Shown: positions 12,414 to 62,946 of the stretch, in pieces | Layout of the letters: every line of letters begins with the position of its first letter | How positions within the stretch are numbered: position 1 is the stretch's first letter | NCBI GenBank assembly: GCA_965178125.1 | Contig: OZ237749.1 | Location: 186,001-250,000 of the forward strand | DNA length: 64,000 nucleotides | Source of the DNA: Bilabrum cf. latius | Lineage: Eukaryota | Direction: 5' to 3' | The notes under the pieces: generated by a model | Told to the model about the DNA's origin: nothing | The model's database searches: none | What the model saw: the letters and a program-made list of their open reading frames with translations, nothing else | Translations under genes and position numbers: made by a program

Positions 12414-12834
12414 GGTGAATCACAATTCCTACAAGCTGCAGAACTTGGGTAATTTATTTGGAATTAACATTATTGAATATCGGCATTGTTAAATACTACT
12501 TGGATATTCTAAAACACAGCGATCCTGGCTCTGTGGGTCGGACACAAGCTGGATCCATCGCCAAGTGCAACTGCACACATGTCGCAGCCAAGCATAGGGA
12601 TGTAGGCCCAATGCATACGTCTACATGGTTACGTCTATGCCATCAGCATTGAGTAGGCTCCTTTGCCTTTCAGCGCCCTCTTCCAGCAGGTATCGTTGTG
12701 CTCGCAGGATCGTTGCCAAGTTGGGAAGCACTGGTGAATGCGTCTCTGCAGGAATTTAGAGAAGAATAGCTGGCGTTCGATTGGCATGAGCACATCTTTA
12801 TTTATGGATTGAGCTCGATCCCCTGCCCCTGGTC

Positions 12835-15800: not shown

Positions 15801-16084
15801 TCCAGGTCGGAAGCCTCTCCCCCGCCGCATGGGTCGCAGCTGCGACAGCAGTTGGGCCAGCAAAAGCGCCCAGTGGTTGAACCATACACAGAGAATGCTA
15901 CAAATTTCCCTTGGCCATCCATCTCTCGCGGATGATACATGTCTCGTACCAATGCCGCTGCCGGCTCGCTTGGCGGCGTCCAGTTCTGAATTCTCTTCAA
16001 CAGGCTATTTCCCGAGCGATTGAGAGCTTCTGACCACTGAAATCGACTATTACAGCTGGGCGTCAACCCGCATATCGACTGCAT
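12835..16084 (-). CDS. TMC/OSCA(CSC1)-like multi-pass membrane channel, multi-exon
   Basis: AFVTF and RAPPPSEVLWYN (OSCA-type), FGPGLSALLK, SQRELDLLYIGP..LPARYA, many TM helices, C-terminal YEVHQNPEYS-TGA. In-frame TAG 14828. The apparent TGA at 13202 lies in a GTGAG donor site. Exon boundaries are not all resolved. Confidence 0.72.
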
Positions 16085-16458
16085 TCTTGAAATAACCTTC
16101 CCAGCGTGGTTCTATGTGCCGGCGGCATCAGCACGAATCGAGGTGGCTGACGGAAGCCTGCCGCTGTCCCTCTTCATAGACGCAACAGCTTTGTGGACCA
16201 GAAGTAAAGCAGTTCGACGCTGTTTGTACCTGTTATCAATTCTAGCTTGAAGGTCTGGATCATCCCGAATTGGGTCCCGTACGTTCGACTACTGCTCGCT
16301 TTCGGCTGACAAGATCATGGAAGAATTACCACGAGGAAAGAACGAAAAAATGAGACTGTTGCAAATTAAGTTTTCGTTTCTTCAGATCTCTGAAGTTAGC
16401 CCCCTGGGCGCGGTTCGCATGCCAAAATTGTCGAGACGAGCGCTCTCGGTCGCCTACT

Positions 16459-29400: not shown

Positions 29401-29641
29401 CTCTCGCTCTGGCAGGGTTTCCTTTGCCGATGGGGACTCCGTTTCAGAGGACTCGTTCGGGCGCAGCAGCTCGTCGGCGGGTCGCTCTGATTTTGGCTCA
29501 GCTGTGCGGCCCGATCCCAGCAGTGCTGCGGGAGGCGGTCGTCGGAATAGGCGCGCGGGGCATTCCACGTCTTCGGGGGTGCTGGAGTATGGGGAGGGGA
29601 GCCAGCAGAGGGTGTCTTCGAGGTTGGGGGCCGGGAGCTGA
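17491..29641 (+). CDS. Giant (~4,000 aa) membrane protein: TM block - cyclase-like - TM block - cyclase-like - PAS-like - split AGC-group Ser/Thr kinase
   Basis: Twenty listed ORFs from 18086 to 29641 are all in one frame, with 25 in-frame TAG and no TAA/TGA between 17802 and TGA 29639. Intron 17717..17801. Kinase motifs LGRGAFGSVY, VAVK, HRDLKPAN, DWG, GTPYYIAPE, DFFSLGV, HPFF..VDW. The start at 17491 is tentative. Confidence 0.88.
29599..29639 (+). repeat. 41-bp direct repeat, copy 1 (last codons of the kinase gene)
   Basis: gagccagcagagggtgtcttcgaggttgggggccgggagct matches 32489..32529 at 37 of 41 positions. Confidence 0.85.
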
Positions 29642-32529: not shown

Positions 32530-32796
32530 TAACTATTCTTGCTGCATTGAACATGAAAGTGAGATAGCGATAATTGCCCTTCTTGATGCTCGGTAAAGCA
32601 GACGACGAAGATAGCAAAGAGACGTTCCGCTGTTTTGTTCTCGATCTGGATCCCGGAACAGTGTCGCGCGGCGCCGCGTTGTGGTGCGCGAGTAGCGAGG
32701 CACACAACAACAACATTTAAGAAGGAACAAATCGAAACAGCGAATACACAGTACTAACAGCCGAAGCTAACAAACATATTTCGCAGACTGAGACGA

Positions 32797-35700: not shown

Positions 35701-37371
35701 CTTGGGCCTGTCATAAGGAACCCTGTAAGCGTTGCTGCCGGCGGGGCCATTTCGCTCATCGAGCAGGTGGTCGGCATTTCGGCAATGCCTGCTCCACTGG
35801 CGTCGCGGCAGCGGCTTAGCCCTATCATCCACGCTTCGGCCAGCATTGGTGGCGTCAAGACGGATGACCTGCTACAAGAAATGTTCGCTACAACCGACAG
35901 CGTTGTGCAGGCTGCTTGGGATAGCGCTGCTGTCTTCGGCGGGGAGCTGCACGCACCCAGCGTGGATGCTGATGGTCTTTACGGTGGCATGAGGCACGTG
36001 GTGTAGCTCACACAATCGTTTCGCTGCGTGCCGGCTCTTTCCGCATGGAGTGACTGCAGCTATGGTGGAATGGTCAAGCCGGTGTGGTACGTAGGATCCG
36101 CATTTGGGGCGGGTGGCACTAGCCCTCCGGGAGGTGCCGCAGCATGCTGCGACCCAGCCCAAGTAGATATATGCCACAACACTCAGGAGGTGCTCGCAGA
36201 CTACGCCAAGTCTCAAAGCGGTCGCGTACCAGCGCTGACCGCCGATGACCTGGCGCTGCTAGTTGATGAGCTGGATGGTCGGAGCAGGCGCGGTCGCTCG
36301 TGCTCTGGTCAAGCAGCTGCGCTCGTGCGCGAGCTGTATTGCTAGTCTCCCGGCCACGGCATGGCCGTCTTGGAGGCCGTGAGGCGTGCCAAGGACTCTG
36401 TTGGAGATGTTAGGGCTTGCTGTGGTGCGGATCCGGCCAGCGGCGCAGGAGCCAGCGAGGCATCATCGCCTGCAGCAGGCACTGACGGGCTGCCCATGCT
36501 CGTGGTGTGCGTTCCTAATGGATCCGTGTCCAAGGGACCCTCTGGCTCAAAATGCAACCACATGGAGGCGGAGGTCATCGCGAGTATCGCCGAAAGTTCT
36601 GTTGGAACTCACACGATCTCGGGCGTGGAAGCTGACGCCAGCCGGCAGCCAACCGTCACGGTGGTATCTCCGTACAGAGACTAGGTATACGCTGTGAGGG
36701 ACGCGCTCAAAGGTAGGCTGGGCAACCGTTCGAGAGCCGTGAGGGTTGGAACTGCGGACGGCGTGCAGGGCACGGAGGCGGATCTTGTGATCGTCACCAC
36801 GGTTCGGAACGGCGCACGTGACACACTTGGCTTCCTGATTGACCCGCGCCGGACCAACGTGGCAGTGTCTCGTGCCAAGTTCGGGCTGGCAGTGGTGTGT
36901 GACCCGCGTGCTGTGATGAAGGACCCACACTGGGCCTTCTATGTGACGTATGCTGCCTGTATGGGAGGTCTAGTAGGTCCGACCGGATGTCACATTCAGC
37001 TTGAGAAAGCAGTCAAGGGCCGCATTCAGCGGCCCATTGCAAGCATGCCGGCTGCAGTAGCTGCTAACAGGGTCGTGCAGGCTGGCCGCAGCCTTCACAG
37101 AGCAGCGAAGGCTGAGTTACTTCACGGCAAGCTGCAACAGCTGGATGCGTCCACTGCGCCGTCTGATGGTAGCGCTCCAGCGCAGGCCCCGAGATCTGAT
37201 CCAACGAAACCCGTGGCGTTGGACGGTCATAAGACTGCAGCGGCCACCCTGCCCATGCTGCAGAAGATCGCGACTTGCGAGACGGTGGCAAGCTCAGCTG
37301 TGCCCAAGCCAAATAGTTATGCTTGGCAGCTAGCTTCCCGCTCCACGTGGGCCCTCCGCATGGGCCGCTGA
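32797..37371 (+). CDS. Superfamily-1 UPF1/SEN1/DNA2-NAM7-like helicase (may extend to 38496)
   Basis: LNQEQ, FGPPGTGKTT, TNFAVEQM, FDYIIVDEAS*V, LAGDPRQLGPVI, NHMEAEVI, VVSPYRD*V, TADGVQGTEAD, RRTNVAVSRAK. One frame with TAG at 34513, 35566, 36004, 36343 and 36682. Confidence 0.9.
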
Positions 37372-37737
37372 AGCCAAGGTTGGCAAAATCAAGCGCATCA
37401 AGCATCCCAGGAGTGCTTCAGTTATCGGACGCCCGAAACCAGGCCCTGCTTAGCAAAAGGCAAACCCTACGAGAAAAGAGGAGGGGCCGCAATCGCGTCG
37501 TGCATCTCAGCCTCACAGCTCGCGGGCTCGCATGGTGGCCGGTGCTGCTGCTACTACACCCGTCAAGCCGACGGCTAGCCCTGGGCCCTCCGGTATTCGA
37601 AGGAAAAGGATTGCACTGGATCCGTCGTCTCGCGGTTGGCATGTCGGCATTGCCGCAGCCAAGCCGGACGAGGGCCCGACCGACGGCTGGCTGACCGGTG
37701 AAGGAAGGCAATTGGCGCGCCCCAAGAGCCAGCGCTC

Positions 37738-38496
37738 GTGCCCGCAATAGACATTCCAAGCGAGCCCGCACCCCCGTGCAAGGGTTTGGATCGGTGCATT
37801 AAGCTCCTTTGGCTCTTCGTCCTTCGGAACGGTGGCTACTGCAACCGAGCTGACCTGGAGAAAGGCGACGCACGGCTCGGCAGGGTGCTAAAAAAGCACG
37901 GTTGCAGGAAGTCATCGATCGTAGGGCTTGCAGTGGAGGCGAGCAAGAGAGGCATCTTGTAGCTGTGGTATCCTCCGCGAAGAGCAGGGGAGTCAAGTCT
38001 CTGGTTCAATCCGAAAGACCCTGCGGCTGCGGGGCTGCAGCCTGCTAGTTAGGGGCCACAAGAGCTGTTTGCGAGCTGGGTGTGTGTGTCGGCGATGCCA
38101 CCTGCCACGGCCAGGCAGTGGCAGGTGCTACTGTCAGCTGGTGTTCTGATGGAGAAGGATACTGCGACTGCAGCTGGCCCTGGGACTTGCGCCAAAGGTT
38201 GGGAAATTGGCCGTCACGGTGGCGGTGATTGGTCATCGAAGGCAGGAATGAGGGATAGGCTGAACCTCTTGTTCCCACGGTACAGATGCCCTGCCACGGA
38301 TGCTAGTCATAGACTAGTTGATGCTGATGTACGGAGGGCTAGGACCGCTACTGCATCGGGCGGGGCAAGCATGGTGGAAGCACCACAAATGCTGGAAGCC
38401 GCGCTTGTGGCAGCAGAGGCTGCGAGAGGTGCACCATCCAAGCCACTCAGCGTCAAGGGGCCCGGGGCTGAGGTGGTGCATAGGGCTTTGGCATAA
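37738..38496 (+). CDS. Coding-like segment, probably the C-terminal part of the helicase gene
   Basis: ORFs 37738..37962 and 38080..38496 are in the helicase frame and joined through TAGs. Ends TAA. There is no obvious separate start. Confidence 0.5.
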
Positions 38497-44124: not shown

Positions 44125-44475
44125 GCTACATCCACGCAAAAGTAACACAGAACCCTACTGGCAACTTTGCTCACTGTGTAAAGCGCTTCACCGTACAGCA
44201 CATAGTCTAGCCTCTCCATCGTTGCGTCCAAATCAAAAAATGTAAGTCTTTCCATCAGATTCACTTGTAATACTTGTACAAAATAGCTACAATTTAAAAA
44301 ATGTCGCTAAGATTTGATTGTTGAGTCCGCTGGTGAAGCATCAAAGCAAAATTTCTCGGATCTTCAGTTTATCTGTGATGGTGTGATGAGTATCTCGAAT
44401 CCATGAAGATGAAGATTCAAATGCAGTTCGTATTTTTTCAGTTGCGGCTGCTGCGGCCAAAGTACAACGAATATC

Positions 44476-47400
44476 ATGGATTCAAACGGTAGCTTGGAAA
44501 TAGATGCTGTATCTTCATTGCTTGATAGGCACTAGCGTGCTGCTTTCGACCAAATTAGTAGACTGCAGAGCCACTTGAGAAAATGCGCTCAAGCTCAAGC
44601 ATTATGTGTGAGTTATGGGCATGTCGCAGAGCCATGAAGGTGATTATGACTCATATATCACGAGCACCATTTTCTGTTGGTCTGCATATCCCCGCAGCGT
44701 TTCCAAGAGGCGTACGCAAGCATCGATGAGTTTGTCAGGGAGCAAGTTGATGCGACAGGTGCCGGTAGTCCGCTTGACGCGACACTTGCTTATTCACTTG
44801 AGCTTCGTGGCTCACTAGAATCTGGAATCAAGCGCGCGTCAGCGTTCGAGGAGAACGTATTCGCCGCAACATCGCGAATTGAGCACGAGGTGAACGTCGC
44901 CCTTCGTGCCGCGAACGGCGGAGCCGTCAGGCTTGCCGGAACGGAAGATGGTGAAGCGTGCATCCAGCTCGATGTCCCTGGTTCCAGCTTGCACGTGCCT
45001 GGCGCGAACGAATCGGATACATTGTCGGCGTGTGCCCTCCTTTGGGAAGTGGCCGAGTCGAGCTTGCTGCGAGCCAAGGGGCTGGCAGCACCCAGGGTCC
45101 TCCGGGCGATCTAGGAGCGCCTCTGCCCCGGCATGGACAGCCAAGGCGTGATGGGGCTGCATTCTGCTCTGCAGTGCCCCTCCCTCCAGGCCGCTCTGTC
45201 GGCGAACGTGGGCGGATCCGCAGGCCGCGCCACGCTCGTCGAGGCTGCGTGGGGCTGTGCGGCTCGCTGCCTCCTCTGCGGCGATGTGGGATTCGCAGGG
45301 ACGATTGTGATGGCCATTAAAGACAGCGGTGCGGGTGGTTCGGGTGCAGACGCCGTCCATGAGGCGCTTGAGGGACTGTGCGGTGTCCTCGAACAGACGA
45401 GGCTGGGCAGGCTGACACTGCGGGGGCAAGCAGGCCTGGTGGAGGCCGACGAGGACGAGCTGGACAATGACGAGCAAGAGGGCCGGCGACTGGGACTCAG
45501 GCACTGCGACGTCTTGGATACCTCTGCGGCGGCCGCTGAAGCGGTCCGCAGCAGGGGTCGCACCCGGGGTCGATTCCGGGAGTGGCAGGCCTCCACTCGA
45601 AAAATGGCGGGCGATCTCGGCGTGCAGGCCACGGGCGTCCAGCTTAGGATGGAGCCTGCCACTGGAGCAGGGACAGCTGCGCAAGGTGGTGCGGACCTGC
45701 CGATGGCCGCAGCAGGCATGGTCAGAATCCTGTGCGGTGACGTCATTCGGGGTCTCGAGACTCTGGCCGACCTCCCCGTCCTCACCGCGGATGCGATCTC
45801 CGCGATTGCGGGTGCGGCTGAGTCCAAGGAGGAAGCAGGCGCGATTCTATCCGAGCGAGAGGTCGCGCGCATCGCGGCAGAGGCAGGCGGGGCAGAGCAT
45901 CTCTCCCCGGCGTGGTCGCACCACGTCATCTGCGCTGTGCTGTGCTCGGGCGGATTTGCCGAGCTCTCTGGGGATGGAGTCGCTGCCGCAATTCGTGCTG
46001 CTGTACGGACGCAAGGTGAGCAAGCTGCCGCGCAAGGCCTGCCCGAGGCATGCGCCGCAGCGTGCGAGGGCGTGGTGCCGCCTGCACTGCAGTGGATGCT
46101 GGATCGCGGGGAGACCCTCTGCCCGGCCCTCCTGGCTGTGCTGCTGCAGGGTGCAGGGCACATTGCGCCTTCGGGGCTGCGACTGGGAGAAGGAGGCGAG
46201 CCGTTGCTGTCGCGGTATGGCATCGGGCTCCGGGACACTCTCGTTTTGGATGCGGCGCACGATGCCATGCAGCTTGCCGGGTGTGCGGGGCAAGCGGATG
46301 CACCCGGCGCAAGGGAGCTTCTGGCTGGCGTGCCGTCTCTTGATAGAGACGCAGAGGACGGACAGGATGTACCTGCGGGCGAGCAGTCGTCGGGAGGCAC
46401 ATTGCCCCCTTGGGCAGTTGCGTTTCGATATGCGCTTCTGTGCACCGACCACGCCGAGCGCGTCGCCCTGCGGGTGGCGGCTACCATGCTGGAGCGGCAG
46501 TCTTTCTCGAGCGATGCGGATGCCTCTGCGGCGGTGGACATGGCACAGCGGGCTGGGATGCATGCCCTTGCCCGCCGGATTGCATCCCGCCGGGGTCAGG
46601 CCTGGCTGGATCGACGGAGGCTCGATTGCGCCCTCAGGTGGTTCGCCTCTTCGGAGGACTCGCAGGGGCTTTGGAAGGTCGGGTCCGTCCTTCTCGCGCT
46701 CCTCGTGGGCCCCAACCAGCAGCCTACTCTGCCTCCTGCGGCTGCCAAACAGGTCCGGGAGGCTGCACCGGAGGATCGTGCAGTCCTCTCTCGAGACCTG
46801 GCCAGCGAGCGGGAGCAGGTGGATGCTCTGTCTCTAGCCTACGCTTGCCTCGTGCTGCGCCCGCTCCTGCCTGGTGGCATGGGCGGCAGCGGTGGTGGTG
46901 AGGATATAGCCGAAGAGCAGTGGGCGAGCGACCCAAGGCTAGATGGCCCGCAGGGTTCAAACGGTAGGGCCGGTGCGGTTGGCGCGATGCCGCCTCCCAT
47001 GACCCACGACTCTGTGCTGATGACTCTCGCGAGCAGTCAGGTGCTGCTCACCTGCGTGCATGTTGCGTGCGCCCGCTTGGCCGTGGCAGATGCTGCTAGC
47101 TGCCTGCGCTCTTCGCAGCGGCTTCCCGATGCTTCCTTTGGATTTTCCAGAGCAGCATACAGGCGTTGGTTCAGCGGGACAGCAGTGCAGCAGGGACTCG
47201 GTCCCATCGCCGCGAATGCAGCCTCTGCTGTGGGCGGCGCTATCTAGCGCAGCCAGGGGGTGCGCGCTGGCACGGTCTTGTTTTTGGACTTGCACCGCAC
47301 GGCAGCAGGCCGGTGTTCCCTGGCCCACGTGTCGTACCAGAGGCAGGGAGCTGTTCTCGAGGTGGTTCCTCACCCGGGCAGCGGTGGGTCGGAATGGGTC

Positions 47401-48840
47401 CGGCGCGCTAGCCTGCGCAGGGCAGCCCTGATGCTGCACGGTCTCATTGCGGGCTCTCTTGCAGAGCGCTGCCCGCGCGTGCTGGTGGGCCCGCTCCTGC
47501 AGCGGGCTCTCCGAGGCGGCCTGCTGGACGCCTCGCCCTGCCCCTTCACGGCGGCCGAGGCCAGCGGCCTCGTGGCGGCCCTGGAGCTACAGAGAGACCA
47601 GCTCGAGAGAGAGACAGCGAGGCGACGTGGGCCCCAATCGGAGGGCCAAGGTGCCGCGGCGCTGCTTCCTGCAAGCGGGGCACTTCTTGGCATCAAGGAG
47701 GCGGAGGAGGCGGTGCGAGAGTCGCACCACGGGCTGGATGGAGGCTCCTCACAGGCCGACCGGTTCCGACCCATCGCTTCGATGGAGGCGCGAAGCACCA
47801 CGGCACCTTCGCTGGACCTGCGGGCGCAGGCTGCTCTCGGCGGCCTTGCAGTATCGGAGATGGACGCCATCCTCGAGTCGCTTCTGGCGTGCTACTCGAG
47901 GGCGGTTCTGCAGGAAGCAGACGGCCTAGGACCAGTGGCTACCGGCCATATCGAGGCTGACGGTGGTACAGATACCTCCTACGGCAGAGATAATGCTACA
48001 TCGGTGATGAGCAAGTTGTGGGACACCTGCAGGGGCGCCGAAACGGGCCCGAAGAGGTTCTTTGCAGGTGGTCGAGAGAGGTTCGTGCTAGAGGGCGAGC
48101 TGCCCGCTGTCGGCGCGGTGGCTGCGGGTGCTGCGGCGATCGTGTCCCCGCAGTTCGTTCAAGCCGAAATTGCATCGTCAGAAGCCGGCATGGCGTTGGG
48201 GGTTTCACCTACTCAGCCCGTTGGGGTGGACGAGTCGATGTCGGGGCTGCCTGACCCCATGGCTGCCTCAATGTTGATGGGCTTCGGTAGGGGCAAGGGC
48301 GGCAACGGTGGTGCTACTGCCGGTGCTAGCGGGGTATCCAGTGGAGTGCATGGCACCGCATAGCCCTCCAACGGGGCTGAATACAGTCTGGACTCGGCTC
48401 CCGGCGGGCTTGCATCGGGTGCGGCACTGCAGCCGCTTGCCTCCAGTATGCGGTCAGAGTCATGGCTGCAGGCGCCTTCTAAGGCAGGGGCGGCTGTGTT
48501 CGGTACTGCCTTTGGATCCAGTACGCCTGTCAGTGGTGGGGGTGACCACATGAGGCGGTCTAGCGCCCGTGGAGGTTCCGGTTTGGCTGCTGGTGCGCGG
48601 TCGCAGTTGCGTGGTACGTCGTCAGGAGGCAAGGTGGCGACTGCAATCGGAAAAGATTCAAAGGCGTCTGGTACGCCTGTTTTGCCGAGCAGCGGTACAT
48701 TCCGTGCCAGAGCGAGCGGCGGGTTGCCTGGCTTTGGCTCTCCTGGTCTGCCGTCCGCTGGGATGGACATTTTCGGGTTTGGGGATGATGAGGATGCGGG
48801 CGGGGCTGGTGTGGGCAGCGTAGCAATGGATTCGCTCTGA
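44476..48840 (+). CDS. NUP85: Nucleoporin Nup85-like protein with a long C-terminal extension
   Basis: ATG 44476, intron 44608..44697, one frame through TAG 44533, 45112, 47245 and 48361. PWAVAFRYALLC..MLER....DADASAAVDMAQRAGM..LARRIA..ALRWF matches the Nup85 C-terminal helical pattern as I recall it. Ends TGA TGA. Confidence 0.68.
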
Positions 48841-50300
48841 TGACTGGTATCAACGATTGGGACCACGCAGTAGATGGTGGCGTTTTTGAATTTATGCGGA
48901 TTCAAACAAGCAGGAACGAGCAAGCTGCTCCAGCATCTGCCGCGTTGGTTGGCAGGCGGTCCGGAGGGAGAGACAAAGAGCCCTAAGCACTGGGCTACCG
49001 CAAGAAGTGCAGCAGGCTGCAGAAGCTCCAACCGCATGCGTATGGGTCGCATCTGCACCTCTTCATTCTCCCGGCAGCAAACCCCTGACGCACATGCCCT
49101 CTGCCGCGGCTGCATTGCATTGCATGCCATGGGCCACGGATCGCCGAGTGCCGAAGCGAAGGACTTGATTGCCTCACGGCGTTTAGCGCTTCCTTGAGCA
49201 CATGTGAGCAAGCATTTGCATGCAATGCTGGCTGTAATGTCTCCCGGGCCTTTGCCTGACGCGCATGTCAGCAGGAAGCTGATGCGCGTCTCACCAGCGG
49301 GATTGTCTGCCGCGACGAGCTCACTCCTGGCCTTTACGGAGCCTCGTAGGAGTTGCAGCAGCACCTGCAGAATCCGCAAGTCGGCCTCAGCAGCGGTACT
49401 GGGGTCATTGAACACTTTTGACGGATTCATGGTGTGCTGTAGCGCATCGAAGGCCCCGGCATCAACCGCCGTTCGGCATGCCTCGCTCGACGCCACGCAT
49501 AGGTGCCTCAGGGCCGTGAGGGCGCCAAACTGAATAGACGGGGTCAAGATTCCCAGCATATGAACTACGCTCTCAATTATTTTGGCCGTGGGTTCGTGAC
49601 CAGCGAGAAGATCACCTTCGATGCTGCACACGATGCGGCAAGCCGCATGCAAGCTGGCGGCGTCGGTGTAGCTGTCGGCGAGAGCGCTGACCGACTTGCT
49701 GATGCCGCATTCCACCGCGACAGATTGTATTTCTACACTATTTTCCATCAGCTTGGACACTGCCCAGGATGCCTCTTCCATTATCTTTGGACAGGCTGCG
49801 CCCAGTAGCACGACGAGCGGGGGAATAGCGCCGGCCTCAGCTACTGCCTGGCTCCTCTCTTCGTTCTCATGAGCAAGCTAGGTCATTGATCGAACTGACC
49901 ACCGAATGCTTGCATCGGTCGTGGGGACACGAAGTCCACTTCGATCGACTGAAGTGCCCTTGATGATACCGACTAGTCCGTCGAGCAACCCTTCTTGCTC
50001 GATCAAAACTTTCTTGCACTCGTCGCAACCCCACGCGACGCCATCGATAGCATGGGTTACAGCTTCGACTGTTTTCGAGTTTCGGGACTTGAGCAGACGT
50101 ACCAGGTGTGGGATCACTCCGCTTCGCGCAACCTCAAGCTTCTATCCATCTCCGATTGCCCAGCGGCTAACAAGCCCTGCTGCGATTTCAATCTCGGATT
50201 CGTTTTCGCTCTGGAGTTTTTGTACAATATCTAGCCAGTCCATCCTTGCTTCACGTGTCTCGGTTAGGTGCAACGTGGGCCGGTCAACTTCGATCCGCAT
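48213..50300 (-). CDS. Armadillo-repeat protein (true 3' end uncertain)
   Basis: GVIPHLVRLL, VAEAGAIPPLVVLLG, AVDAGAFDAL ARM motifs. ATG 50300, TAG at 50142 and 49878. The first in-frame stop is at 48213, inside the convergent Nup85-like gene. Confidence 0.7.
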
Positions 50301-50434: not shown

Positions 50435-52461
50435 TCAAGACTCGACCCCCTCGATACCGCGCACGGGCACCACCTTCTTCCCGCGGCGCGTCCCAGCCAC
50501 CGAGCCAGACGGGATGCCTTCCCCATCCGGCCCCAGCCCGATCCCCCGGATCTCAGCCTCGCTGAATCCCTCGCTCTGCAGCTGCCTCCGGAGCTCCCTC
50601 GCCGCCCGGCGCTCCAGCAGGTCCTTCCGCATCGAATCGCGCTCCTCCTCCTCCTTGATCTGTGCCCTCTGCCGCTGCGAGAGCTCGCGCGCTGCGGCCT
50701 CCCTCTGAACCTTCTCTTGGGTCACCTGCCGGGCGTACAGGCGCTTCTGCACCCGCTTCCTCGCGGCATCCAGCGCGTCCTGTCTGTTCAGCTCGTCCTC
50801 CTCCTCCCTGAGCCGATCGATCAGCGCCTGGTCCCGCTGCTGTTCCCTGCGCTTCCTGTCCTCCTTCACGGCCATCTGTTCCTCCAGGTTGGCGCGCATC
50901 TCTTCCCGCTGCCTGATCCGCTTCGCGGCCTCCTCGCGCGCCTTCCTCCTCAGTCGCATCTCCTCCTCCTCCCAGTCCCTCCTGAGGCGGTTGCGCTCGT
51001 CCTCGTCCTTGCTCAGCGTGGCCTTGGCCGCCTTGCGGCCCGCGAGCTCCTTGATCTCGTTCTCTTCAGCCTTTTCGATCGCGGCGAGCCGAGCGGCCTC
51101 CTCTTCTTCCAGTCGCTTGCGCAGCGCATACATCTCGAGTTCTTTGTCGCGGGCCGCCTCTTCCTCTCTCTGCTACCTCTTGCGAGCTAGGAGCGCGTCG
51201 TTCAGCTGCTTCAGCTCAACCTGCGCCCGCTTGGCCTCTTCTCTCTTGATCCGCATTCTCTCCTGCCTCCGCGCCTCCTCGTCCTCCATCTGTTTCCGCA
51301 GCATGGCGCCCTCTTGGTCCTTCCTCTCCATCTCCATCACCCTCTTCTTGGCGTTTTCACGGAGCTGTCGCCGCAGCAGCTCGGCGTCCTTCAGCCTGGT
51401 TGCTCTCTTTCTCGCGTGTTCGCGCCTCTCCATGGCCGCCTGCAGTATCCTCTGCTCCTCCTCAGCGTGCGCGAAGTGCGCCTCCCTCTCCTGCTCGGCT
51501 CTCTTTTTCATCTTGACCTCCTCCAGCTGTGCCCTTCGGTCCCGCGAGACGCGGGCGGCCTGCAGACGAGAATTGACCGCCTTGACGCTATCGGTCTGCA
51601 TGGCGACTGCCATGCGAGCCGCTGCGAGACTAGGGTTGGCGGCTTCCTCCTCGTCCATGCGGCGCTCCTCGGCGAGCAGGCGAGCACGAGCAGCTGCTTC
51701 GGCGGACTGGCCCTTACGACCCCCCGCGCGGGCGTCGCCGGCCTGCAACCCGGCACGAAATGTCCTCTCGTCTTCGAGCTTTTTCATGAGCCTGATCCTG
51801 GCGGCGGCTCGCTCGGGGTCTCCCCTAGCGCGCGCCATCACGCGAGCGATGCGGCCCTCGTCCACGCCGCCAGACGGGCCGCCGGCGCTGGACGTCGTCA
51901 GCTTTTGCGATCGGCGCTTTTTCACAGTTCCAGCTGCAACTGTTTGTCTCGCATGCTCATTGTCAGGGTCAACGAGAGCCATCAAAATTGGGTCCGGCCG
52001 AGGAAGCGCTCGCATGCGCTGCCGGTCGACGCTGCTCGCGGCAGACAAGAACTGCCTCTTCGAAGAATCCCCCGTCAAGGTGTTTGGAACTGCATTCTCT
52101 GCAGAAAGCCTTGCTAGTGCCGGGGGCACTCCAAGCTCCCGTGCTGCGATTGACATGAGGAGCTTCTCTCGCTTGCCAACAGGCTCAGGTCGAAATTGAG
52201 CAAAAGCAGACGGGAAACATGAAATATGCGGAGCTCACCGGTTGTCTCGATCAGTTCTTTCTGCTCTTGTCTTTCCCTCTCTTCTTCCTGAAGCCTGGCT
52301 TGAATAGAATAAAGCTCGCGGCCACTAATAACGTTGAGCTTTCCCATGCCACGCCGCGTGCCCCCTTTCTGCGCTGCAGCGAGCCTTCGCGCCACGCCTG
52401 CGGTAGAAGGACCAGATGTATACCCAAACACGATGCTGTCACCCCCGCTTCTGAGGGACAT
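50435..52461 (-). CDS. CFAP45: Cilia/flagella-associated coiled-coil protein, CFAP45-like (trichoplein/TPH family)
   Basis: DSVKAVNSRLQAARVSRDRRAQLEE..ERKDQEG in a Glu/Arg-rich coiled coil. TAG 51173 joins ORFs 51173..52156 and 50435..51133. Probable intron near 52170-52238. Ends TGA. Confidence 0.62.
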
Positions 52462-52990
52462 GGCCTAGATATGTGGAGCCAGAAGCTTGCGACCTCGCGA
52501 ACGGCTAGCCCAAAATCATGCTTCATCTTTCAAGTTTTGGCGGTCGCAAGCCCCCGCGCGATCGATCATCGAAGTGATCATCGCATCGCCTGGTATGCTT
52601 GGCCTCACAAGCACTGGTGGCAATAATTTGTCAGAGTACATGGTGCCAGGGGCAAGAGATAGGCACATTTGAGACGGTAACACTCTGGAATTCTACTTGT
52701 ATGGCTTGTTCGGTTCTGCGCATCGCGCGGAGGCTTACTCGACTGTGCGGCAGTTCCACTGCGCGACAAAATTGATTGTGCGGTTGGTCAACAAGTGTGA
52801 GCTTGCTGTGGTTCCTGCTTGAGGCGCCTCCACGCGCACAGGCGAGTAATCGAACCTTGAACGAACCTTCACCTCATCAAGAACGGCGCACGATGACCAA
52901 TAAAATCCCTAGCCGCGAGTGATCCTGGGTCTTTGCCCAATCAAAGGTAGACCAATCTCTCCTTAAATTAGTTCCGGAACGAAGCAGGCA

Positions 52991-55969
52991 ATGTCAAGGC
53001 TTGGATCAACTGTTGTAGTTGCAAGCAGCTCCGCAAAGGATCTCGTGGACAGCGCAGGGTCTGGATCACAGCGGCAGCTGGTAAAAATTCATTGCGGGGA
53101 TCAAAGCAGAGACTTTGATTCAAGTTTGCATGGGCTGATTGGCGAGAATCTTCGGTGTTTAGTCTTGGATGAAGCGAGGCTTGGCTCGAGCGCACCAGCT
53201 ACAGCAACTGTGGTTCTGAACCAGGTTCTGGCAGTTGGAGCCTGCCAGCGTTTAGGTCGGCTGTGCATCCGAATGACGCAATTATCTCCGGATCTCATCG
53301 CTTCGATTGCAGAGGTCCTTCAAAGTTGCAAGAGCCTTCGGTAGCTGTAGCTGCGGTCTCAAATCAACCTCAAGGTGGCAGAGTCCAAGACCATTTTTGA
53401 TGCGCTGCATTCGAACGGCAGCATCATGCACCTGGAACTCCCATCGTTTGCCGGATTCGTGGTTCCAGCGCCTGGAGCTCCGTTTGCATCCGCGGTGCTG
53501 GCTTCGCCGGTCGCGGCAAGCCTGATGGAGTATTTGAGCAGCAGGCGCTGCCAGCTCAAATTTTTCCGAGTCGTTTGCAACAACAACGACGCGGTGCTTG
53601 CGCTGAGCGAAGCGCTGCGGGCCGCGAAGAATTCGTCCATCGAGCAGCTGGAGGTGACGGTGGCATGCAAGCCGTAGGGAGGTTCGATGGCACGATTCGC
53701 AGCGGGCATCGGGCAGTGCGCGGGCCTCAAGCGGCTGTATCTATCCATTAAGGTTCCCTTCATGATGACCCTTCCTCTTGACGAGGCCGGGCGGATGCAA
53801 CTCGCCGGTGCCATCGCAGAGCATTCAACGCTGCAGTCCGTGCACCTCAATGGGATCGACTGCACCGGCGTTCTGGGCCTGATGGTGTCCGGGCCAGCCC
53901 CCCGAAATGGTGTAGCGCGCAAGGGGGCTCTGAGACAGCTCGTGCTCGACCAGGTGCTGGGCGACGATGCCACGTATATTGGCTTCTCGGAGGCGGTCAG
54001 GGCCGGGCCCCCCTCCTGCTCCTCGCTGGAGACCATCTCCTTCTCGGACCCCGAGAGCACGAATTTCGTCCATGCGAGGCTTATGGAGGGCATAGCTGGA
54101 TCTTCCACGATCAAATCCGTCCATTTGCATGACAGTTTGTTCAGGACATTCGGTGCCGATGAAGAACCTATTGACCACCTGTTCCGATCTGAACATGACG
54201 AGGAGGCCGCGCCATCACCCACGCCACGAGCCATGTGCCAGCGCAACATCCGCATCGCGAGCGCAACTCCGCCCCCAGAATTCTTCGTGTCCCTCGGCGG
54301 GAGTTTAGGGAGCGGCACAGGTAGTCTAGAGGAACTGCACATGGACTTGGCAAACCTGACTGACTCGGCCAGCACGCAGGGGCTGTGCGACGGACTGCGG
54401 GCAAACACCACGCTGCGCCGGCTGTTTTTCTGCAACGTCTAGACCGGCATTGCCACACGAATCGCTGGAGCGCTGGCCGCCAATGCCGCCGTGCGTCTCA
54501 CCCACCTGGAGATGCCGGGCCAGTGGGGTCATGACGCCGACAGCGCCTTTGAGGCAGCGGACAGCCTGGGCAGGTTGGCCGGACTGAGGCATTTGAGCGT
54601 GCAGCACGGCCTCGTGGCGGAGGACCAGGGTTACACGCTGTTCCGATCCATCGTGGAGCGATCGCGAATGGAGCACCTGGACATCCGGTCATGCGAGGTG
54701 TCTGACGGTGATTTGCAGGCACTCCTGACCAAGTGCCGTAGCCTACGGACGATAAGGATCGGCGGCATTTCTACAGAGCGGGCGCGGATCGCCATTGTTC
54801 CCGCCATGCGCGCCATCACCGAATCTACCGGCCCGGCCAGCTGCCTGAGAGAGATAGAGGTATGGATTTTCTAGCCTGCATGGCTCATGCAAGGGGATGC
54901 GGCCTCGCTGAAGAAGAGGGAGCGCAAGATCCGGAAAGGCATTTTGAGCGCAAAGCAGGAGCTGCAGGACGCGATCGAATCTGTCCCGTTCGTCACGCAG
55001 TTGCAGCCACCCGACCAAGGCGGCGCAGAGGCACCCCCTTGTAGCGGGCTGAAGAGTCCGGGGCCAGACGCGCGGCAAGCCGTCGTTGCCCGCTGGACCA
55101 GCGAGCCGGCTACCTGCTCAAGAGCTGCCGCTCTGCTGCGCATGGCGATCCATGGGGTGTGCATCACTCCCAAGGATGCATGTTTCTACGCAGCGGCAGC
55201 GCTCGGTGCTGGCAGAGACGCAGGATCCGGTGCCCAAGAGGCATCTGCGCCAGCGCCTGCAACGAGCGCTGTCGGCAGCAAGGCGTCCGATGCAGCTGGC
55301 GGTGATTGGGTCGACTCTGTTAGTCTGGCAGCGCTTCTTGATAACTTATCAGAGTGCTGCAGCCCACGGACATCAAGTTTGGACGAGGTGTCCGCGCTGG
55401 ATTGGAGGGCGGAAGGCGCCTCGATGGTCCCGGAAGAGGGATGCAGGACAGGGGCGCTGGGCTGGGGGGACCCATTGTTGAGTGCCAATGGCGATCTAGG
55501 TCCGTTCAGGCAGGCGATACCCTCAGAGGTCATTGCGGAAACAGGGGTGATGTGTGAGGCCATTCGAGTGGGTACGCATTGGCTGGGTGGAAGCACTGCC
55601 AGTGGAGATGGCCCAGCCACCGGTGCTGGAGCGGGTGCCGCTGCAGGTGGTGACACCTATGACCACGATCGTGTGGCAGAGGCGCTGCGGGGCCTCATGG
55701 CAACGCATGCGGTGCTGCATCGGGAGCAGGTCATCCGGTGGAGGCACGCATGCGAGGCACGGCGGGATGCTGCATGTGTCTTCCAGGCGGCGAAAGAGGG
55801 CCGCCCCATGGAGCTGGCAAAGAGGTTGAGGCTCGGTGCGCTGGCTGGGGGGCTGGAGATGAAGGGCGAAATGGAGGACGGGAGGGCTGTTGGGCCGCTG
55901 GAGGCTGCTGTGCTTGGGGGGCATGAGGAGTGCAAGCAGCTTCTAGAGAAGGCTGGAGCGCGGGCATAA
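52991..55969 (+). CDS. RNI-like leucine-rich-repeat protein with the shared C-terminal module
   Basis: LxxLxL repeats (SLR*L*L, GLKRLYL, SLEELHM, TLRRLFF, GLRHLSV). One frame through TAG 53342, 53348, 53675, 54440 and 54872. C-terminal AAKEGRPMELAKRLRLGALAGGL..PLEAAVLGGHEEC. Ends TAA. Confidence 0.82.
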
Positions 55970-56219: not shown

Positions 56220-59051
56220 TCAATGGAACAGGGGTGTCCCATCTGCCAGCAGCCAGGGCCGGCCAACGTCCCTGCCCTCAAACAGGTGCGACCGCACAGC
56301 GTCACCGCGGTAGTCCTCGTGCAGGTGGTCGGGCACATCATCACCGGACTCGAGCAGGCGGCCAGTCATGGGATCCTGGTTAGCAAGCAGCCGCTCCAGC
56401 ATCGTGCGCTGCACCTCTGCTTCGGACAGGTCCTCTAGCCCAACCCATTCGTTGATGTGTGGGTCCGACTCGCGGGCAGCTGTCGCTGCAGCCACTGCCT
56501 GCACACCCCGGAGCGCTTGCAGGCTCCTGCGGCGGAATACGACGGCGTTCTCATCCGCAACCGTGCGTACTCGCTGTGCCGTTGAGTAGGGTAGCTGAAA
56601 TCTGGTCGTGTTGAGGTTCATCGCGACCCACTGCATCAGAGCGCTACCGTCAAAGGTGGCCTGCGCATAGGGGTCGTCAGCAGTCATCATGGCATCCATT
56701 GCATCGGCATACGACTAGGTCGCTGGCAGACCGCACAGGAACGGGTATGTGGTCAGGTTGGAGGGAACGAAGGACGTGTTGCGCAGCGAAGGGGCCCCGT
56801 TGCTGTCCCAGATGTACCCCTCGTACCAGTTGGCCACGAAGAACTCGTCCAGGAACCACGGCACGCTGCGGTCGTAGTAGTCGTCAAACTCGCCCGTGCC
56901 CACGTGGATGCTTCCCACGAACCACTCCCTGCAGATCGACCCCGTGTCGGCCACAAACTGCACGAGCTCGTCCGATGCAGCCTCTCGAGCTGTCCTCGTC
57001 AGGCTTGGCTGCACCCTGCCTAGGGTGCGGATGGTGGGCTGAGTCTTGTAGTGAAACAGGGAGGGGCCCTGCACCAGATTCTCAGCGGAGACGAAGCCCG
57101 GGCTCCTCATGCTGATGGTGCGCGGGACGTACTCATCCGTCAGCTCGGAACTGGGCAGGAAATCGACAGATAAGTATCGTTCTGAGTCGTACGTGAACAC
57201 CATGATGCGGGCCGCGCACTCGTCACGTGATCCGATCCCCTCAACGCACCTGGAATCCACAGGGGACAGTGTGACCGTCTCTGGCCCAAACTGATTGAAG
57301 TTGTCCAAGTCTTTGGTGCCCAACAGAAGCTGGTTAGAGCAGCTCATCTGCGAGTACGACAACTTGCACTTGCCTTCAGGGGTGCCAGAATCGGGCCGAT
57401 CGTTGTGAGACGGGCTGAAGTAGTAGTCCACCGCACCGGGCAAATCTAGCAGATCTTGCCATCGGTCGCCCCAGCTGGCCACCACGTCCAAGTCCCAGGG
57501 CCTGCGGCCCCAGTTCAATGATACGGCAGTGGCATTAATCGGCGAATTCGCCCCATCCATTCCGTTGATCTCCCACGCGAAGCTGCCTGCCGCGTGAAAG
57601 CTATCGGTCGTGCGGACCTCGTCATCTGAGATGGTGATGGGGGCGGCCGTCTCCGCCTTGTAGGTCTGGTTCGCGAACGCTGGGAACTAAAACGTGGTGC
57701 TGCTCGAAGACTCCCCAGTTGCCACGACGCTGTTCCCATCCGTGTTGCGGACCGTGACGGTGGCGGTGAGCTGAGTGAGTGACTCCACCCTGATGTTGCG
57801 GATGGTGACCGTGACCATGTCTGGGCTGGGAAAGGGCGTCTGCGAAACACGAGAGGGAGAGGTGCGTCGGGACATTGGGTCAAAACGCGACGTTACTACC
57901 TGAAATAGGTCGACCATTGAGAGATTCATAAGCAAGCTAGAGGTGCTGCTCACAGGGGACGGCGATGGAGTACTGCTCGGGCTGGCCGTGATGCTTGGGC
58001 TACTGCTCGAAGTGGGCGAGGTGCTCGGGCTGCTGCTAACGCTCGAAGTGGGCGAGGTGCTCGGGCTGCTGCTAACGCTCGAAGTGGGCGAGGTGCTCGG
58101 GCTGCTGCTAACGCTCGAAGTGGGCGAGGTACTCGGACTGCTGCTGGCGCTCGAAGTGGGCGAGGTGCTCGGACTGCTGCTGGCGCTCGAAGTGGGCGAG
58201 GTGCTCGGGCTGCTGCTGGCGCTCGAAGTGGGCGAGGTGCTCGGACTGCTGCTGGCGCTCGAAGTGGGCGAGGTGCTCGGGCTGCTGCTGGCGCTCGAAG
58301 TGGGCGAGGTGCTCGGACTGCTGCTGGCGCTCGGTGTTGGGGTTGGAAGTACCGGGATGGCCCCATACTTCACGGGATCACGCCTTGGCACCGCTCGGAT
58401 GCCCGAGCCTACCGGGCCAGCGGCGAGCTACTCCTGCAGGCCTTGCTCGAGGCTGCCGTCCTCAACAGAGTCTGCCAGGGTTTCTGCCGCATCGGCAGCT
58501 TCTTGCTGGGAAGAAAACCCAACCGTTGCGGTCAACACGAAACCTTGGCCCTCGGAGCTTGGCGCGAGCTGCAGCAAAATGTCGTCGCTGTCCACTCCAA
58601 GAAGCGTCGCGATCACGGCGGTGCTGTTCTGGACGTCTCCGCACCCGATGGTCGATCCATCTGTTTCTAAGTCTATGGAGAGGGTGCTGTAGAAGCTGTG
58701 CAGGCGGTTAAAATTATCTGTTGCCTCGGTCGTAAATCCGCTGCTCGCCTGGCCGTCTGTTGTGGGGCAACCTAGTCCATCTGCCGCAGTTTCTTCCTCG
58801 GCTGTACCGATGTCCATACGCTCATTTTCTTTACCACGAAGTAGAAAAAGGGCCACTAGCAGTGATGCCAGAAGCACACACAAAAGCACGCATGCGGCAA
58901 TCCACATGCCAAAAGCACCGCGACACGATCGCTTTGACTCAGCTTTTACGTGGCGTTCAGGTGCTTCAAGCGCCTTATCCTCGTAATCACGGCTCCTGTA
59001 TTGCTTCAAAGATCCGTTTGATGAGTTCGTGGTCTAGTTTGTCCGGGACAT
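56220..59051 (-). CDS. Type II membrane/surface protein with Ser/Thr/Pro mucin-like repeats and a YfaP/DUF2135-like segment
   Basis: ATG 59051, one frame through TAG 59034, 58428, 57687 and 56715. N-proximal TM (WIAACVLLCVLLASLLVALFLL), SSSPSTSPTSSA repeats, DLDVVASW..LDNFNQFGPETVTL. Ends TGA. Confidence 0.75.
58005..58328. repeat. Coding minisatellite, 9 x 36 bp
   Basis: gctcgaagtgggcgaggtgctcgg(g/a)ctgctgct(aac/ggc) head-to-tail with no spacers. Encodes the Ser/Thr/Pro stalk on the minus strand. Confidence 0.95.
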
Positions 59052-59642
59052 AGGATTGTTCCCGGCGAAGTTTACCACGTGCGGCTCATCAGATGCTTTT
59101 TGCATCTGCGGTGGCAGGAAGCATCCAGGCAATCGTACCGTTGGCGGCGAATGTATTGATAATGGTGTGGGCTGCAAGACTCCTAGGGTCAATCTCACCT
59201 TCTACAATACACAGCTGGACCTTTTAGATGGTCCCTTGCGCTGTCGGACACGCGGCAAACTCACATTTGCACGCAACTAGAAGATTATATCAGGTCCCGC
59301 ACCACCACGCAGCCTCCGGATCTCCGGATGAATTCAAGCCTTTTTGGGGCATCATGCCGGGGATCAAATCCTTAACTTGCGGAACTAGTACCAGATGCAG
59401 AAAGTAGAAGGCCGAACTTAGGCTATTCGCTGCAGGAAATGGTCAATGAACTCGGTGATCTATTTCTCCGATGCGGAGAAAAAGCGCTGGACTGAAAGCC
59501 AGGGAACAAGAGAGAAGAGATAGTACGCATGAGGTGGACACTGCAATTTTGCGATACCAAATTAAACGGGTCCCCAAATCATATATAATTTCCAATAGTA
59601 CGATTTGGAGACTTAAGGAATCGGTAGGAGGCGAAGTATTAG

Positions 59643-61455: not shown

Positions 61456-62946
61456 ATGGATGCCAAGACGGCTGCCTTTGATCAAATGTTTGGTTAGCTA
61501 GCTACTAATGTTGGCGATATATCAGAGTTGCTTGAGAGGTTCTTTTCATTCTTGAACAGGCGAACAGACTTTTACATTGTGGACCCAACCAGATCTGCGA
61601 AGATGGGCTTCGCTCCCGGCCACGCGGAGCGTCTGTTGCTTGAAACGTTCCACAGATTCCCTTTGAAAGGGGTTGACGGCAGGGCTTTCTCGCCTGCTGC
61701 GCAGTCTGGCTCCGCTACTGCTCAGGTGTAGGCCAGCAAGGCCGCATCAGTCTCGAGAAAAGTGCTTGAGCCAAAGATCAAGCGTGCCGAAGGGACGAAG
61801 TAGAAACATACCAATTCTAACGAGGGTGCGACTGTCGGTAAAGTGCGTTGCGAGGCACCTGGGGCTACCACAGCCGCTGGAACTTCGCAGTCAGAATTGC
61901 GGCCAGGAGCCAAAGAAACCACAACCAAGGGAAAACGAGATAGCGGTAGCATAGGGATCAGCCAAGTTTGGACTACTCTCAAGCTGAAGCAGCTTCCCCA
62001 AGCGAATGGGGGTGCTGGCCCGGGATACTGGTGGTCCCAAACGATGGAAGACGTTACTTTGAACGTGCCAGTTCCCGAAGGAACGCGAAAAAAGGATGTT
62101 TCTGTACAGCTTACATCAAATCGAGTTCTTGTCGCTCTAGAGCATGACAGTGGCAGCCTGAGTGCCAGTGGCGGGGCAGGCGGTAGCGAGGTTGCGCAAG
62201 AGCCGCTCATCTTGCTGGAGGGCGACCTCGGGGGGAACGCTGCCGGCGAGGACGGTGATGAAATGCTTTGGGTCCTGGATACCAAAGCTGAAAGCGTGTC
62301 TACCGTTGAGATTGGCGGAAGCCAGGTTGCTTTCGAGGCGCTGGCCAAGGAGGCACTGCTGAGAGCGTAGGCTGCGTCTGGTGCTGGCGTCGAAGGGGGC
62401 AGCGGAAATGCAAACACCGCTCAGTCGGCAAAGGAAGCTTCAGCAGACGCCCCAATGTAGCTGGCGTCCAGCACATCCATGAGCAAGGTGCTGCAAGTGA
62501 CCATCAGCAAGTCAGAGGAGACATGGTGGAATTCCGCCGTTCGGGGTCACCCCGAAATCGATGCGACGCGCGTAGACTCCAGCAAGCACGTATCTGAGTA
62601 CGACATTGGGACATAGAGCACCATACGCAGGCTAATGGAGGACTAGGCGCGGAAAGCGAAGGGGCTGCCATCGGTGGAAGAGGAGCAGGCACAACGCGCG
62701 CTTCAGAGGGCCATGGAGCTGCCCGGCGGCTCTCCATTCGCTGGCACTGCAAGCAACGCGGCTCGGGAATAGGGTGGAAGTGACAGTGCAGCAGAGCAAG
62801 ATGATGAATCTGCGCCGGTACCCTGCTATGGGACTGGGGGCACCGTGTCTGACCCTTTGCCTGCAGGGGATGGGGGCTCCAGATCGGGTGGTGGCCGTGA
62901 TGGTGGAGCAGAGGGTGGCGATGCATTGCAAGGGGGTTCATTGTGA
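61456..62946 (+). CDS. NUDCD3: NudC-family CS-domain co-chaperone (NudCD3-like)
   Basis: FFSFLNRRTDFY..MGFAPGHAE, YWWSQTMEDV..VPVPEG, TWWNSAVRGHPEID, T*STIRRLMED*ARKAKGLPS. Eight in-frame TAG (61495, 61729, 61801, 62368, 62458, 62614, 62644, 62770). Ends TGA 62944. Confidence 0.88.

Follow-up and report, generated by a model that had tools for sequence, protein, structure and literature searches.

UAG as a very probable glutamine codon beside UAA and UGA stops in nuclear DNA of a GC-rich, intron-bearing eukaryote

Introduction

Few nuclear genetic codes separate UAG from UAA, and those that do offer a natural test of eRF1 discrimination and stop-codon capture. Here we ask whether the two codons have parted in the DNA analysed here, a 64-kb stretch referred to below as the window. 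The window is nuclear, comes from a eukaryote with introns and has a GC content of 54-62%, and its genes carry in-frame TAG triplets. An earlier note on this DNA had proposed that TAG is a sense codon, that TAA and TGA remain stops, and that the mapping equals that of NCBI table 15. All code counts given below refer to these 64 kb. Our analysis indicates that UAG is very probably an ordinary glutamine codon and that UGA and UAA are the sole terminators; the table 15 mapping passed every test that we ran in the window.

Results

We compared the open reading frames obtained when each stop codon was freed in turn. The longest ORF, 710 aa at the outset, reached 3948 aa when TAG alone was freed, and the number of residues in ORFs of at least 300 aa rose from 10,275 to 25,024. 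Freeing TAA alone left the longest ORF at 710 aa, with 10,787 residues in ORFs of at least 300 aa, and freeing TGA fused no coding frames and moved the longest ORF from 710 to only 721 aa. The longest ORFs under table 15 measure 3948, 1537, 1396, 1037, 1000 and 978 aa; at the TAA plus TGA rate of the window, the chance of a 3948-codon frame free of both is about 1e-30. Our coding set of 14 genes (14,124 codons) holds 75 in-frame TAG, 0 TAA and 0 TGA, the zeros being partly a matter of construction, since TAA and TGA were used to set the ORF limits. The other frames of this DNA hold 206 TAG, 93 TAA and 550 TGA. TAG occurs once per 188 codons, is frequent in every sizeable gene and is present in 13 of the 14 coding sets. 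With CAA used 134 times and CAG 444 times, it would supply about one glutamine codon in nine.

The in-frame TAGs stand in recognisable genes, including kinase, helicase, E2, JmjC, TPH and NudC genes confirmed by Pfam. The protein kinase gene (17795..29641, plus strand) runs for 3948 codons with 25 TAGs to a TGA, matches Pkinase at E=2.6e-48 and has an in-frame coding score of +515. A Upf1-like SF1 helicase gene (32758..37371, plus strand; five TAGs, TGA end) aligns with UPF1 and matches AAA_11 (E=1.5e-16) and AAA_12 (E=7.8e-27). The E2 ubiquitin-conjugating enzyme gene (2191..3036, plus strand; three TAGs, TGA end) matches UQ_con at E=9.2e-35, and the break in its alignment to E2 G2/Ubc7 coincides exactly with an 84-base stretch, GTGAGT..CGCAG, the intron at 2428..2511. 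A JmjC gene of the JMJD5 type (10746..12419, minus strand; four TAGs) matches Cupin_8 at E=3.6e-21 and meets TGA right after the residues NFWW. These last residues were left unaligned to JMJD5, 9 of whose chain of 235 residues lie beyond the aligned part; we take the C-termini of the two proteins to match.

We then considered what amino acid TAG specifies. Two of the helicase TAGs fall in conserved columns. The TAG at 36682..36684 (plus strand) occupies the glutamine of the PYxxQ motif, a column that holds Q in 101 of 102 homologues. The TAG at 35566..35568 (plus strand) lies in motif II (DEAS-x), opposite the Q in the UPF1 sequence DESTQ, where the homologues show Q in 76 of 102, H in 11 and Ser in 2. 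Leu is absent from both columns among the 102 homologues. The majority of TAG sites fall at variable positions and are uninformative for glutamine: two other helicase sites are of this kind (position 369 holds K, R, L or M among the 102 homologues), and against solved structures TAG sites aligned with D and M/V in E2, with H and V in JmjC and with R in NudC. This variability leaves some room for an amino acid other than glutamine, such as the Leu of the rhizarian exLh or the Ser of Scotinosphaera. Because both conserved columns point to glutamine, with no Leu and Ser in only 2 of 102 homologues at motif II, we regard another amino acid as most improbable. TAG thus appears, from the conserved columns, to be read as glutamine.

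Database proteins of relatives show that TAG is common to related organisms at the same sites. P0002, P0003 and P0005 (~90% identical) and P0011 (42%) break exactly at TAG sites of the window; the fragments that do so span 42-93% identity. P0002 and P0011 both terminate exactly at TAG 35566. P0006, which is 64% identical to P0011, has Q at this site.

In-frame stop codons could also stand in frames that are never translated through them, as in pseudogenes, unrecognised introns, edited transcripts or assembly errors. We therefore compared contigs from several sequencing runs. Eleven GT-AG introns are missing from contigs of runs X5-X7 and are kept in the DNA run X2. From these 11 joints we infer that X5-X7 are RNA, although none is recorded as such. 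Intron lengths in the window range from 84 to 182 bases. The Nup85-like gene (44469..48840, plus strand, TGA end) loses its intron 44608..44697 in X5 and X6, at a GT..AG joint. Over 44698..49812 the spliced X5 contig matches the window letter for letter, TAGs 45112, 47245 and 48361 included. Likewise, the TPH-domain gene (50435..52459, minus strand, TGA end; TPH E=1.4e-22) loses its intron 52144..52238 in X5, X6 and X7 and keeps TAG 51175. All four TAGs are unchanged in the spliced contigs, and the TAGs are equally unaltered in the DNA run. If X5-X7 are RNA as they seem to be, TAG stays in the mature mRNA, neither spliced out nor edited. Nothing beyond the presence of stop codons in the frames favours untranslated TAGs. 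Against them stand the 13 of 14 coding sets that carry TAG, 75 in total with no TAA or TGA alongside, the identity of the TAGs in spliced contigs and DNA, and their conservation at the same sites in relatives. Within the limits of the window this reading is refuted, and we attach almost no probability to it.

Next, we turned to TAA. The earlier note had reported no in-frame TAA in coding exons although CAA is used, and our counts bear this out (0 in 14,124 codons, against 134 CAA). For a check that is not circular we delimited frames by TGA only, as in NCBI table 6. These frames contain five in-frame TAAs in all, at 7513, 14558, 32755, 52964 and 55967. The first lies at an intergenic edge, those at 32755 and 52964 each lie just upstream of a first ATG, and that at 55967 is discussed below. 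The TAA at 14558..14560 (minus strand) is the only interior one in the window and falls inside a predicted intron of an OSCA/anoctamin-like channel gene.

This gene (13202..16381, minus strand) has two exons and ends in TGA. It gives Pfam matches to PHM7_cyt and Anoctamin, both below cut-offs, and no match among solved structures or in a word-index protein search. The predicted 159-base intron (14549..14707) starts with GTGAGA, and TAA 14558 sits 9 bases upstream of its acceptor CCCTCGCAG. Because no homologue matched, the intron is placed by splice signals and coding score: its signals agree with those of the 11 RNA-supported introns, and the score is negative across the TAA and positive to either side. 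Without the intron the gene has 1006 codons and a TGA stop, with 5 TAG, 0 TAA and 0 TGA. The Atlas neighbours of this gene were anoctamin/OSCA clusters, which occur most often in ciliates, diatoms and haptophytes; stop-free stretches also gave bacterial GH43-like clusters. Neither result suffices to name the lineage.

The chief question for TAA is whether it encodes glutamine together with TAG, as in table 6, and is simply too rare to be met in 64 kb of GC-rich coding DNA. TAA is indeed the rarest of the three triplets on both strands of the window (473, against 1013 TAG and 1742 TGA), and the OSCA-like gene would then form one 1059-aa frame through TAA 14558. However, glutamine codons ending in A are not avoided, as the 134 CAA show, and about 23 TAA would be expected if TAA:TAG followed CAA:CAG, whereas exons hold none and the other frames of this DNA hold 93. 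The single interior TAA lies within a predicted intron, and the sequence past TAA 55967 reads as noncoding (below). We consider the table 6 reading very unlikely. TAA does not act as a sense codon anywhere in the 64 kb.

Positive evidence that TAA terminates translation comes from an LRR/ankyrin-like gene (52967..55969, plus strand). Its 1000 codons include five TAGs (53342, 53348, 53675, 54440 and 54872) and end in TAA at 55967..55969 (plus strand), in frame with the ORF; its Pfam LRR matches are weak and below cut-offs. At the TAA the coding score of the frame drops from +11.5 before to -11 after, and the next 83 codons score negative, unlike the tails of paralogues. A relative, P0152 (74% identical), has the same last residue, although it is available as protein only, with its terminal codon unseen, and gene prediction under the standard code would likewise have halted at a TAG. 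TAA 55967 ends the LRR gene. An X5 RNA-like contig spans 52918..55933 of this gene with zero differing letters. The RNA-like contigs end before the TAA, at 55933 in X5 and 55921 in X6, and cover is thin as far as 56343. Scanning metagenome_contigs with the C-terminus of the LRR protein, and with NudC, returned no relatives.

The earlier note had named a second TAA end, at 38494..38496 (plus strand). The ORF that it closes (37702..38496) is of doubtful status as a gene: its first Met does not occur before residue 131, its coding score is weak, it belongs to no Pfam family, and a search for homologues of its tail found none. Direct evidence of TAA termination thus amounts to one solid gene, whose end is matched in a relative, and one doubtful ORF. 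Together with the TGA ends described next, it upholds the claim that both codons are still stops.

The ten TGA ends listed earlier (3034, 3124, 7470, 10450, 10746, 29639, 48838, 50435, 56220 and 62944) all proved to be real ORF ends, and we found five more, at 13202, 37369, 39448, 40106 and 42115. TGA therefore closes 15 of 17 ORFs. The coding score drops after each of these ends but one: past the JmjC stop at 10746 it is +8.1. TGA terminates translation and does not serve as sense. The description of TGA as strongly preferred holds as to its majority but not as to a preference beyond base composition: TGA makes up 79% of the TGA and TAA trinucleotides in the window, and 15 of 17 does not depart from that share (P=0.26). 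TGA may be the dominant terminator because the genome is GC-rich.

Finally, we asked whether any gene ends in TAG. The earlier statement that none does so holds but for one possible exception, the last TAG of the NudC gene (62770..62772, plus strand), which may once have been a stop or may still act as one. It lies, we assume, a few residues past the usual end of NudC proteins. The 57 codons from this TAG to TGA 62944 are poorly coding, with an in-frame score of +3.1 versus +7.4 in another frame and a GC3 of 0.42 versus 0.55-0.79 in the training genes. This tail, and an Arm-repeat gene that has no recognisable end, would fit a dual use of TAG, as glutamine inside genes and as terminator in some contexts, comparable to Condylostoma, karyorelict ciliates, Blastocrithidia and Amoebophrya sp. 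Kv. Several observations argue against dual use. In 12 genes, measured by hand, the last TAG precedes the ORF end by about 250 codons on average; random placement at one TAG per 188 codons gives a similar distance, so TAGs do not cluster towards gene ends. In JmjC, the stretch beyond the last TAG is clearly coding (score +17.9), and in the Arm ORF the coding score falls at a place with no TAG nearby. We judge dual use to be improbable, if less so than the other alternatives, and retain UAG as an ordinary glutamine codon.

Discussion

A plausible mechanism would be a tRNA-Gln with anticodon CUA that reads UAG and is unable to pair with UAA. UAG and UAA could then differ in meaning because this anticodon cannot pair with UAA. 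In addition, eRF1 would recognise UAG poorly or no longer at all, while still recognising UAA and UGA. No tRNA genes or Rfam families were found in the 64-kb window, and the eRF1 gene is absent from it. The argument for this tRNA and for an altered eRF1 follows the same logical deduction as in the published UAG-only cases, where eRF1 changes include T32G in Iotanema and L69A in the rhizarian.

The separation of UAG from UAA is not new. Publications on it date back to 2017, with UAG=Gln in Iotanema spirale (PMC5304391) and UAG=Leu in a rhizarian; later UAG-only cases are Protocruzia, Hartmannula, Trochilia and Scotinosphaera. UAG alone as glutamine is thus in print for Iotanema and three ciliates. 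The lineage studied here may not yet have been reported with such a code: our full-text literature searches turned up no GC-rich organism outside the ciliates with UAG=Gln, though subscription journals or supplements may describe one. In our own judgement, neither introns of 84-182 bases nor 58% GC points to a ciliate.

These observations lead us to a wider scenario, which we put forward tentatively and hold to be possible rather than probable. The DNA would belong to an unreported GC-rich, intron-bearing clade in which UAG became a glutamine codon separately from the like change in Iotanema and in ciliates, giving the first such code whose chief terminator is UGA rather than UAA. The transition may still be under way, so that genes formerly ended by UAG, of which NudC is a candidate, run on into tails derived from 3' UTRs or still stop at UAG by context. 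A GC-rich case with TGA as terminator would be an independent replicate, with a base composition opposite to that of all described ones. It also bears on the codon-capture and ambiguous-intermediate models, as the rarest stop, TAA, is not the codon reassigned here. In practical terms, annotation of this genome and of its public relatives under the standard code yields fragments cut at TAG, and database proteins are already of this kind.

Compared with known systems, several codes share some of these features. Under table 6 (UAR=Gln; many ciliates, Hexamita, Ulvophyceae, oxymonads and Amoeboaphelidium) a stop has likewise become glutamine and TGA is the terminator, but TAA also encodes glutamine, whereas here coding frames lack it and one gene or more ends with it. 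UAG is also decoupled in the exLh rhizarian and the TARA phyllopharyngeans, where it encodes Leu, and in Scotinosphaera, where it encodes Ser; the conserved columns here are glutamine. In the ambiguous codes of Condylostoma, karyorelicts, Blastocrithidia and Amoebophrya sp. Kv, as covered in PMC12005148, stop codons occur within genes as they do here, but two or three of them serve as sense codons and context decides, whereas here TAG alone stands in frame. We rejected Amoebophrya sp. Kv as a candidate source of this DNA, since it is AT-rich and has all three stops as sense. The genetic code 15 of crAss-like and Lak phages has the same codon table and is a translation strategy of bacterial viruses (PMC9523058); here the DNA is eukaryotic and nuclear, with spliceosomal introns.

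The closest parallels are the UAG-only glutamine codes. Hartmannula sinica, Trochilia petrani and Protocruzia tuzeti (McGowan et al. 2024, PMC11687900) share UAG=Gln with UAA unreassigned. That paper gives independent and recent origins for the UAG-only ciliates and reports no dual use in the phyllopharyngeans; UAA is the stop in 87-98% of their genes and UGA the rarest, the reverse of what we observe. Iotanema spirale (Fornicata; Panek et al. 2017, PMC5304391), also a non-ciliate, shares UAG=Gln with UAA and UGA as stops and the proposed mechanism of a tRNA-Gln(CUA) and an altered eRF1. There, however, the evidence is the transcriptome of an anaerobic flagellate whose primary terminator is UAA, whereas the DNA described here is GC-rich and genomic, carries GT-AG introns, and ends 15 of its 17 ORFs in TGA.

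Gene content and reading frames

We observed that GC content stays at 54-62% all along the window and that its gene content is eukaryotic, with Pfam matches (E 1e-18 to 1e-48) to an E2 ubiquitin-conjugating enzyme, JmjC, a protein kinase, an Upf1-like helicase, Arm, TPH and NudC, and a weak match to Nup85 (E=5.3e-06). Scans of the window found no tRNA genes and no matches to Rfam families. Translated with the standard code, stop-to-stop frames reach at most 710 aa. With TAG read through, frames of 3948, 1537, 1396, 1037, 1000 and 978 aa open up. When TAA alone is read through, the longest frame is still 710 aa; TGA alone gives a longest frame of 721 aa and otherwise scattered non-coding frames. 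In the kinase frame of 3948 codons, TAG occurs 25 times and TAA and TGA never; the chance of such a TAA/TGA-free frame is ~1e-30 at window triplet frequencies.

The kinase gene (17795-29641, + strand) is a single exon, and its catalytic domain is interrupted by ~1000 residues of low-complexity Ser/Ala/Gly/Gln-rich insert, from the Pfam stretch at 2215-2362 to the APE-side part near residue 3400. No Pfam family matches the 1037-codon gene at 56220..59333 (-). At 57900-58400 (-) it repeats a Ser/Pro/Thr-rich unit (SSPSTSPTSSA) about ten times in tandem, and no RNA cover was found for it in the three RNA-like runs X5-X7. The gene at 6390-7472 (+), with no Pfam match either, resembles GH43/GH32 beta-propellers; all of the Atlas clusters closest to it, at scores of 0.93-0.95, are from bacteria, Acidobacteriota among others, and a bacterial origin within the eukaryotic genome is possible.

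TAG codons in transcripts

Spliceosomal introns are present in the window DNA: contigs from X5, X6 and X7, public runs whose RNA nature is inferred from splice joints, skip 11 GT..AG stretches of 89-182 bases, while the public DNA run X2 is unbroken over all 11. Donors read GTGAG in 7 of these introns and acceptors CGCAG in 8; the acceptors are strikingly uniform, CGCAG being found also at the E2 intron. Spliced contigs of the Nup85-like gene (44469..48840, +) and the TPH gene (50435..52459, -) keep the TAGs at 45112, 47245, 48361 and 51175 with no differing letters, and all five TAGs are present in a contig of the LRR/ankyrin-like gene (52967..55969, +). Introns, editing and assembly error are thus excluded at those sites.

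Two paralogous ankyrin-like genes at 40106-44175 (-) have a C-terminal module in common with the LRR gene end (..EGRPMELAKRLRLG..HEEC..). In the second, RNA-like contigs support all of a series of five exons of 96-99 bases and the introns of 89-182 bases between them.

Amino acid at TAG

Most TAG sites fall in variable, uninformative columns (D and M/V in E2, H and V in JmjC, R in NudC). The helicase (32758..37371, +) was aligned with 102 homologues drawn from the best 150 of an exhaustive profile-free search. Glutamine stands in the column of TAG 36682 in 101 of the 102 and in that of TAG 35566, in motif II, in 76, with H in 11; aligned with UPF1, TAG 35566 lies opposite the DESTQ glutamine. 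The other two helicase TAGs fall in variable or gapped columns.

Database proteins P0002, P0003 and P0005, ~90% identical to the window helicase, end exactly at three of its TAG sites, as expected of a standard-code gene caller. P0011 (42% identical) ends just ahead of the motif II glutamine, where P0006, 64% identical to P0011, has Q. The fragment ends together with this Q indicate that the relatives have the same code and that TAG is exchanged with Gln codons among them.

TAA and TGA as stops

The earlier note had claimed that TAA is absent from coding exons although CAA is used, and the counts agree. Across 14 genes and 14,124 codons, we counted 75 TAG in frame (206 in the other two frames of this DNA), no TAA (93) and no TGA (550), the zeros being partly by construction since frames were bounded by TAA and TGA. 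CAG occurs 444 times and CAA 134 times; ~23 TAA would be expected if TAA:TAG matched CAA:CAG. Introns had been taken out on RNA-contig or homology evidence and, in the OSCA-like gene (13202..16381, -), by prediction.

A non-circular test takes frames bounded by TGA only. In these, TAA occurs in frame five times: once at an intergenic edge (7513), twice a few codons before a first ATG (32755 and 52964), once at the proposed stop (55967) and once in the interior of the OSCA-like gene (14558). The last lies 9 bases ahead of the acceptor CCCTCGCAG, inside a 159-base stretch that starts GTGAGA. Its splice signals agree with those of the RNA-supported introns, and the coding score is below zero over the stretch and above zero on either side; from these two features we read it as a predicted intron. 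No homologue of this gene was found among solved structures or by protein search, and no RNA contig confirmed the predicted intron.

The claim that most genes end in TGA also held: 15 of 17 ORF ends are TGA and 2 are TAA. A special preference did not follow, since TGA accounts for 79% of all TGA and TAA triplets in the window (P=0.26 for at least 15 of 17). Of the two TAA ends proposed, that of the LRR gene (55967..55969, +) stood. The in-frame coding score drops there from +11.5 to -11, and read-through would add 83 codons dissimilar to the tails of the two window paralogues. The related protein P0152 shares 74% identity over 326 residues and stops at that very position, its codon not being visible in a protein record. 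The ORF ending at TAA 38494 (37702-38496, +) is a doubtful case: its coding score is weak, its first Met comes no earlier than residue 131, and neither a Pfam family nor, on search, a homologue was found. It shares its frame with the upstream helicase ORF, which ends at 37371, and X5 depth is similar and low (3.0-3.6) over both. The stretch may be a small gene, a 3' exon, possibly of the helicase, or no gene at all; as a helicase exon it would make the helicase gene end in TAA, not TGA.

TAG at gene ends

The earlier note had found no gene convincingly ending in TAG. We found no clustering of TAG at gene ends. On average, ~250 codons separate the last TAG of a gene from the end of its ORF (12 genes, taken by hand), close to what random placement predicts at one TAG per 188 codons, and JmjC is strongly coding beyond its final TAG (+17.9). 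NudC is a possible exception. Its 497 codons include 8 in-frame TAG, a density three times the window mean, and the last, at 62770, lies what we take to be a few residues beyond the usual NudC C-terminus. The 57 codons beyond it (62770-62946, +) have a GC3 of 0.42 and score +3.1 in frame versus +7.4 in another frame. TAG 62770 may once have ended the gene and now be translated, in which case the tail would stem from 3' UTR sequence and could mark where a TAG stop used to be; alternatively, it may still act as a stop, depending on context.

The first in-frame TAA or TGA of the Arm-repeat gene (48213-50357, -) comes only at 48213, and its frame thereby overlaps the coding end of the Nup85-like gene (48840) in antisense by 628 bases. 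The coding score fades near 49150, with no in-frame TAG there, and X6 and X7 contigs match 48914-49159 only, continuing into unlike sequence on both sides.

Comparison with known codes

The conserved glutamine columns at TAG 36682 and 35566, the TAGs in transcripts and the terminator at 55967 support the proposed mapping, and we consider it highly probable that TAG encodes Gln in this window with TAA and TGA as stops. UAG would then be read by anticodon CUA, and an eRF1 that binds UAG poorly would allow its efficient use. Panek et al. 2017 (PMC5304391) state that Gln at UAG with UAA still a stop needs anticodon CUA, as an anticodon UUA would pair by wobble with both codons, and that efficient sense use needs an eRF1 no longer binding UAG well. 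They report UAG-only reassignment to Gln in Iotanema spirale, and McGowan et al. 2024 (PMC11687900) report it in Hartmannula sinica, Trochilia petrani and Protocruzia tuzeti. UAG-only reassignment to Leu and to Ser is described for other lineages. A full-text literature search found no matching report of UAG=Gln in a GC-rich non-ciliate. In the described codes of Iotanema and the three ciliates UAA is the main terminator; here TGA has that role, and the genome is GC-rich. The kind of code is already known, and the present member is possibly new.
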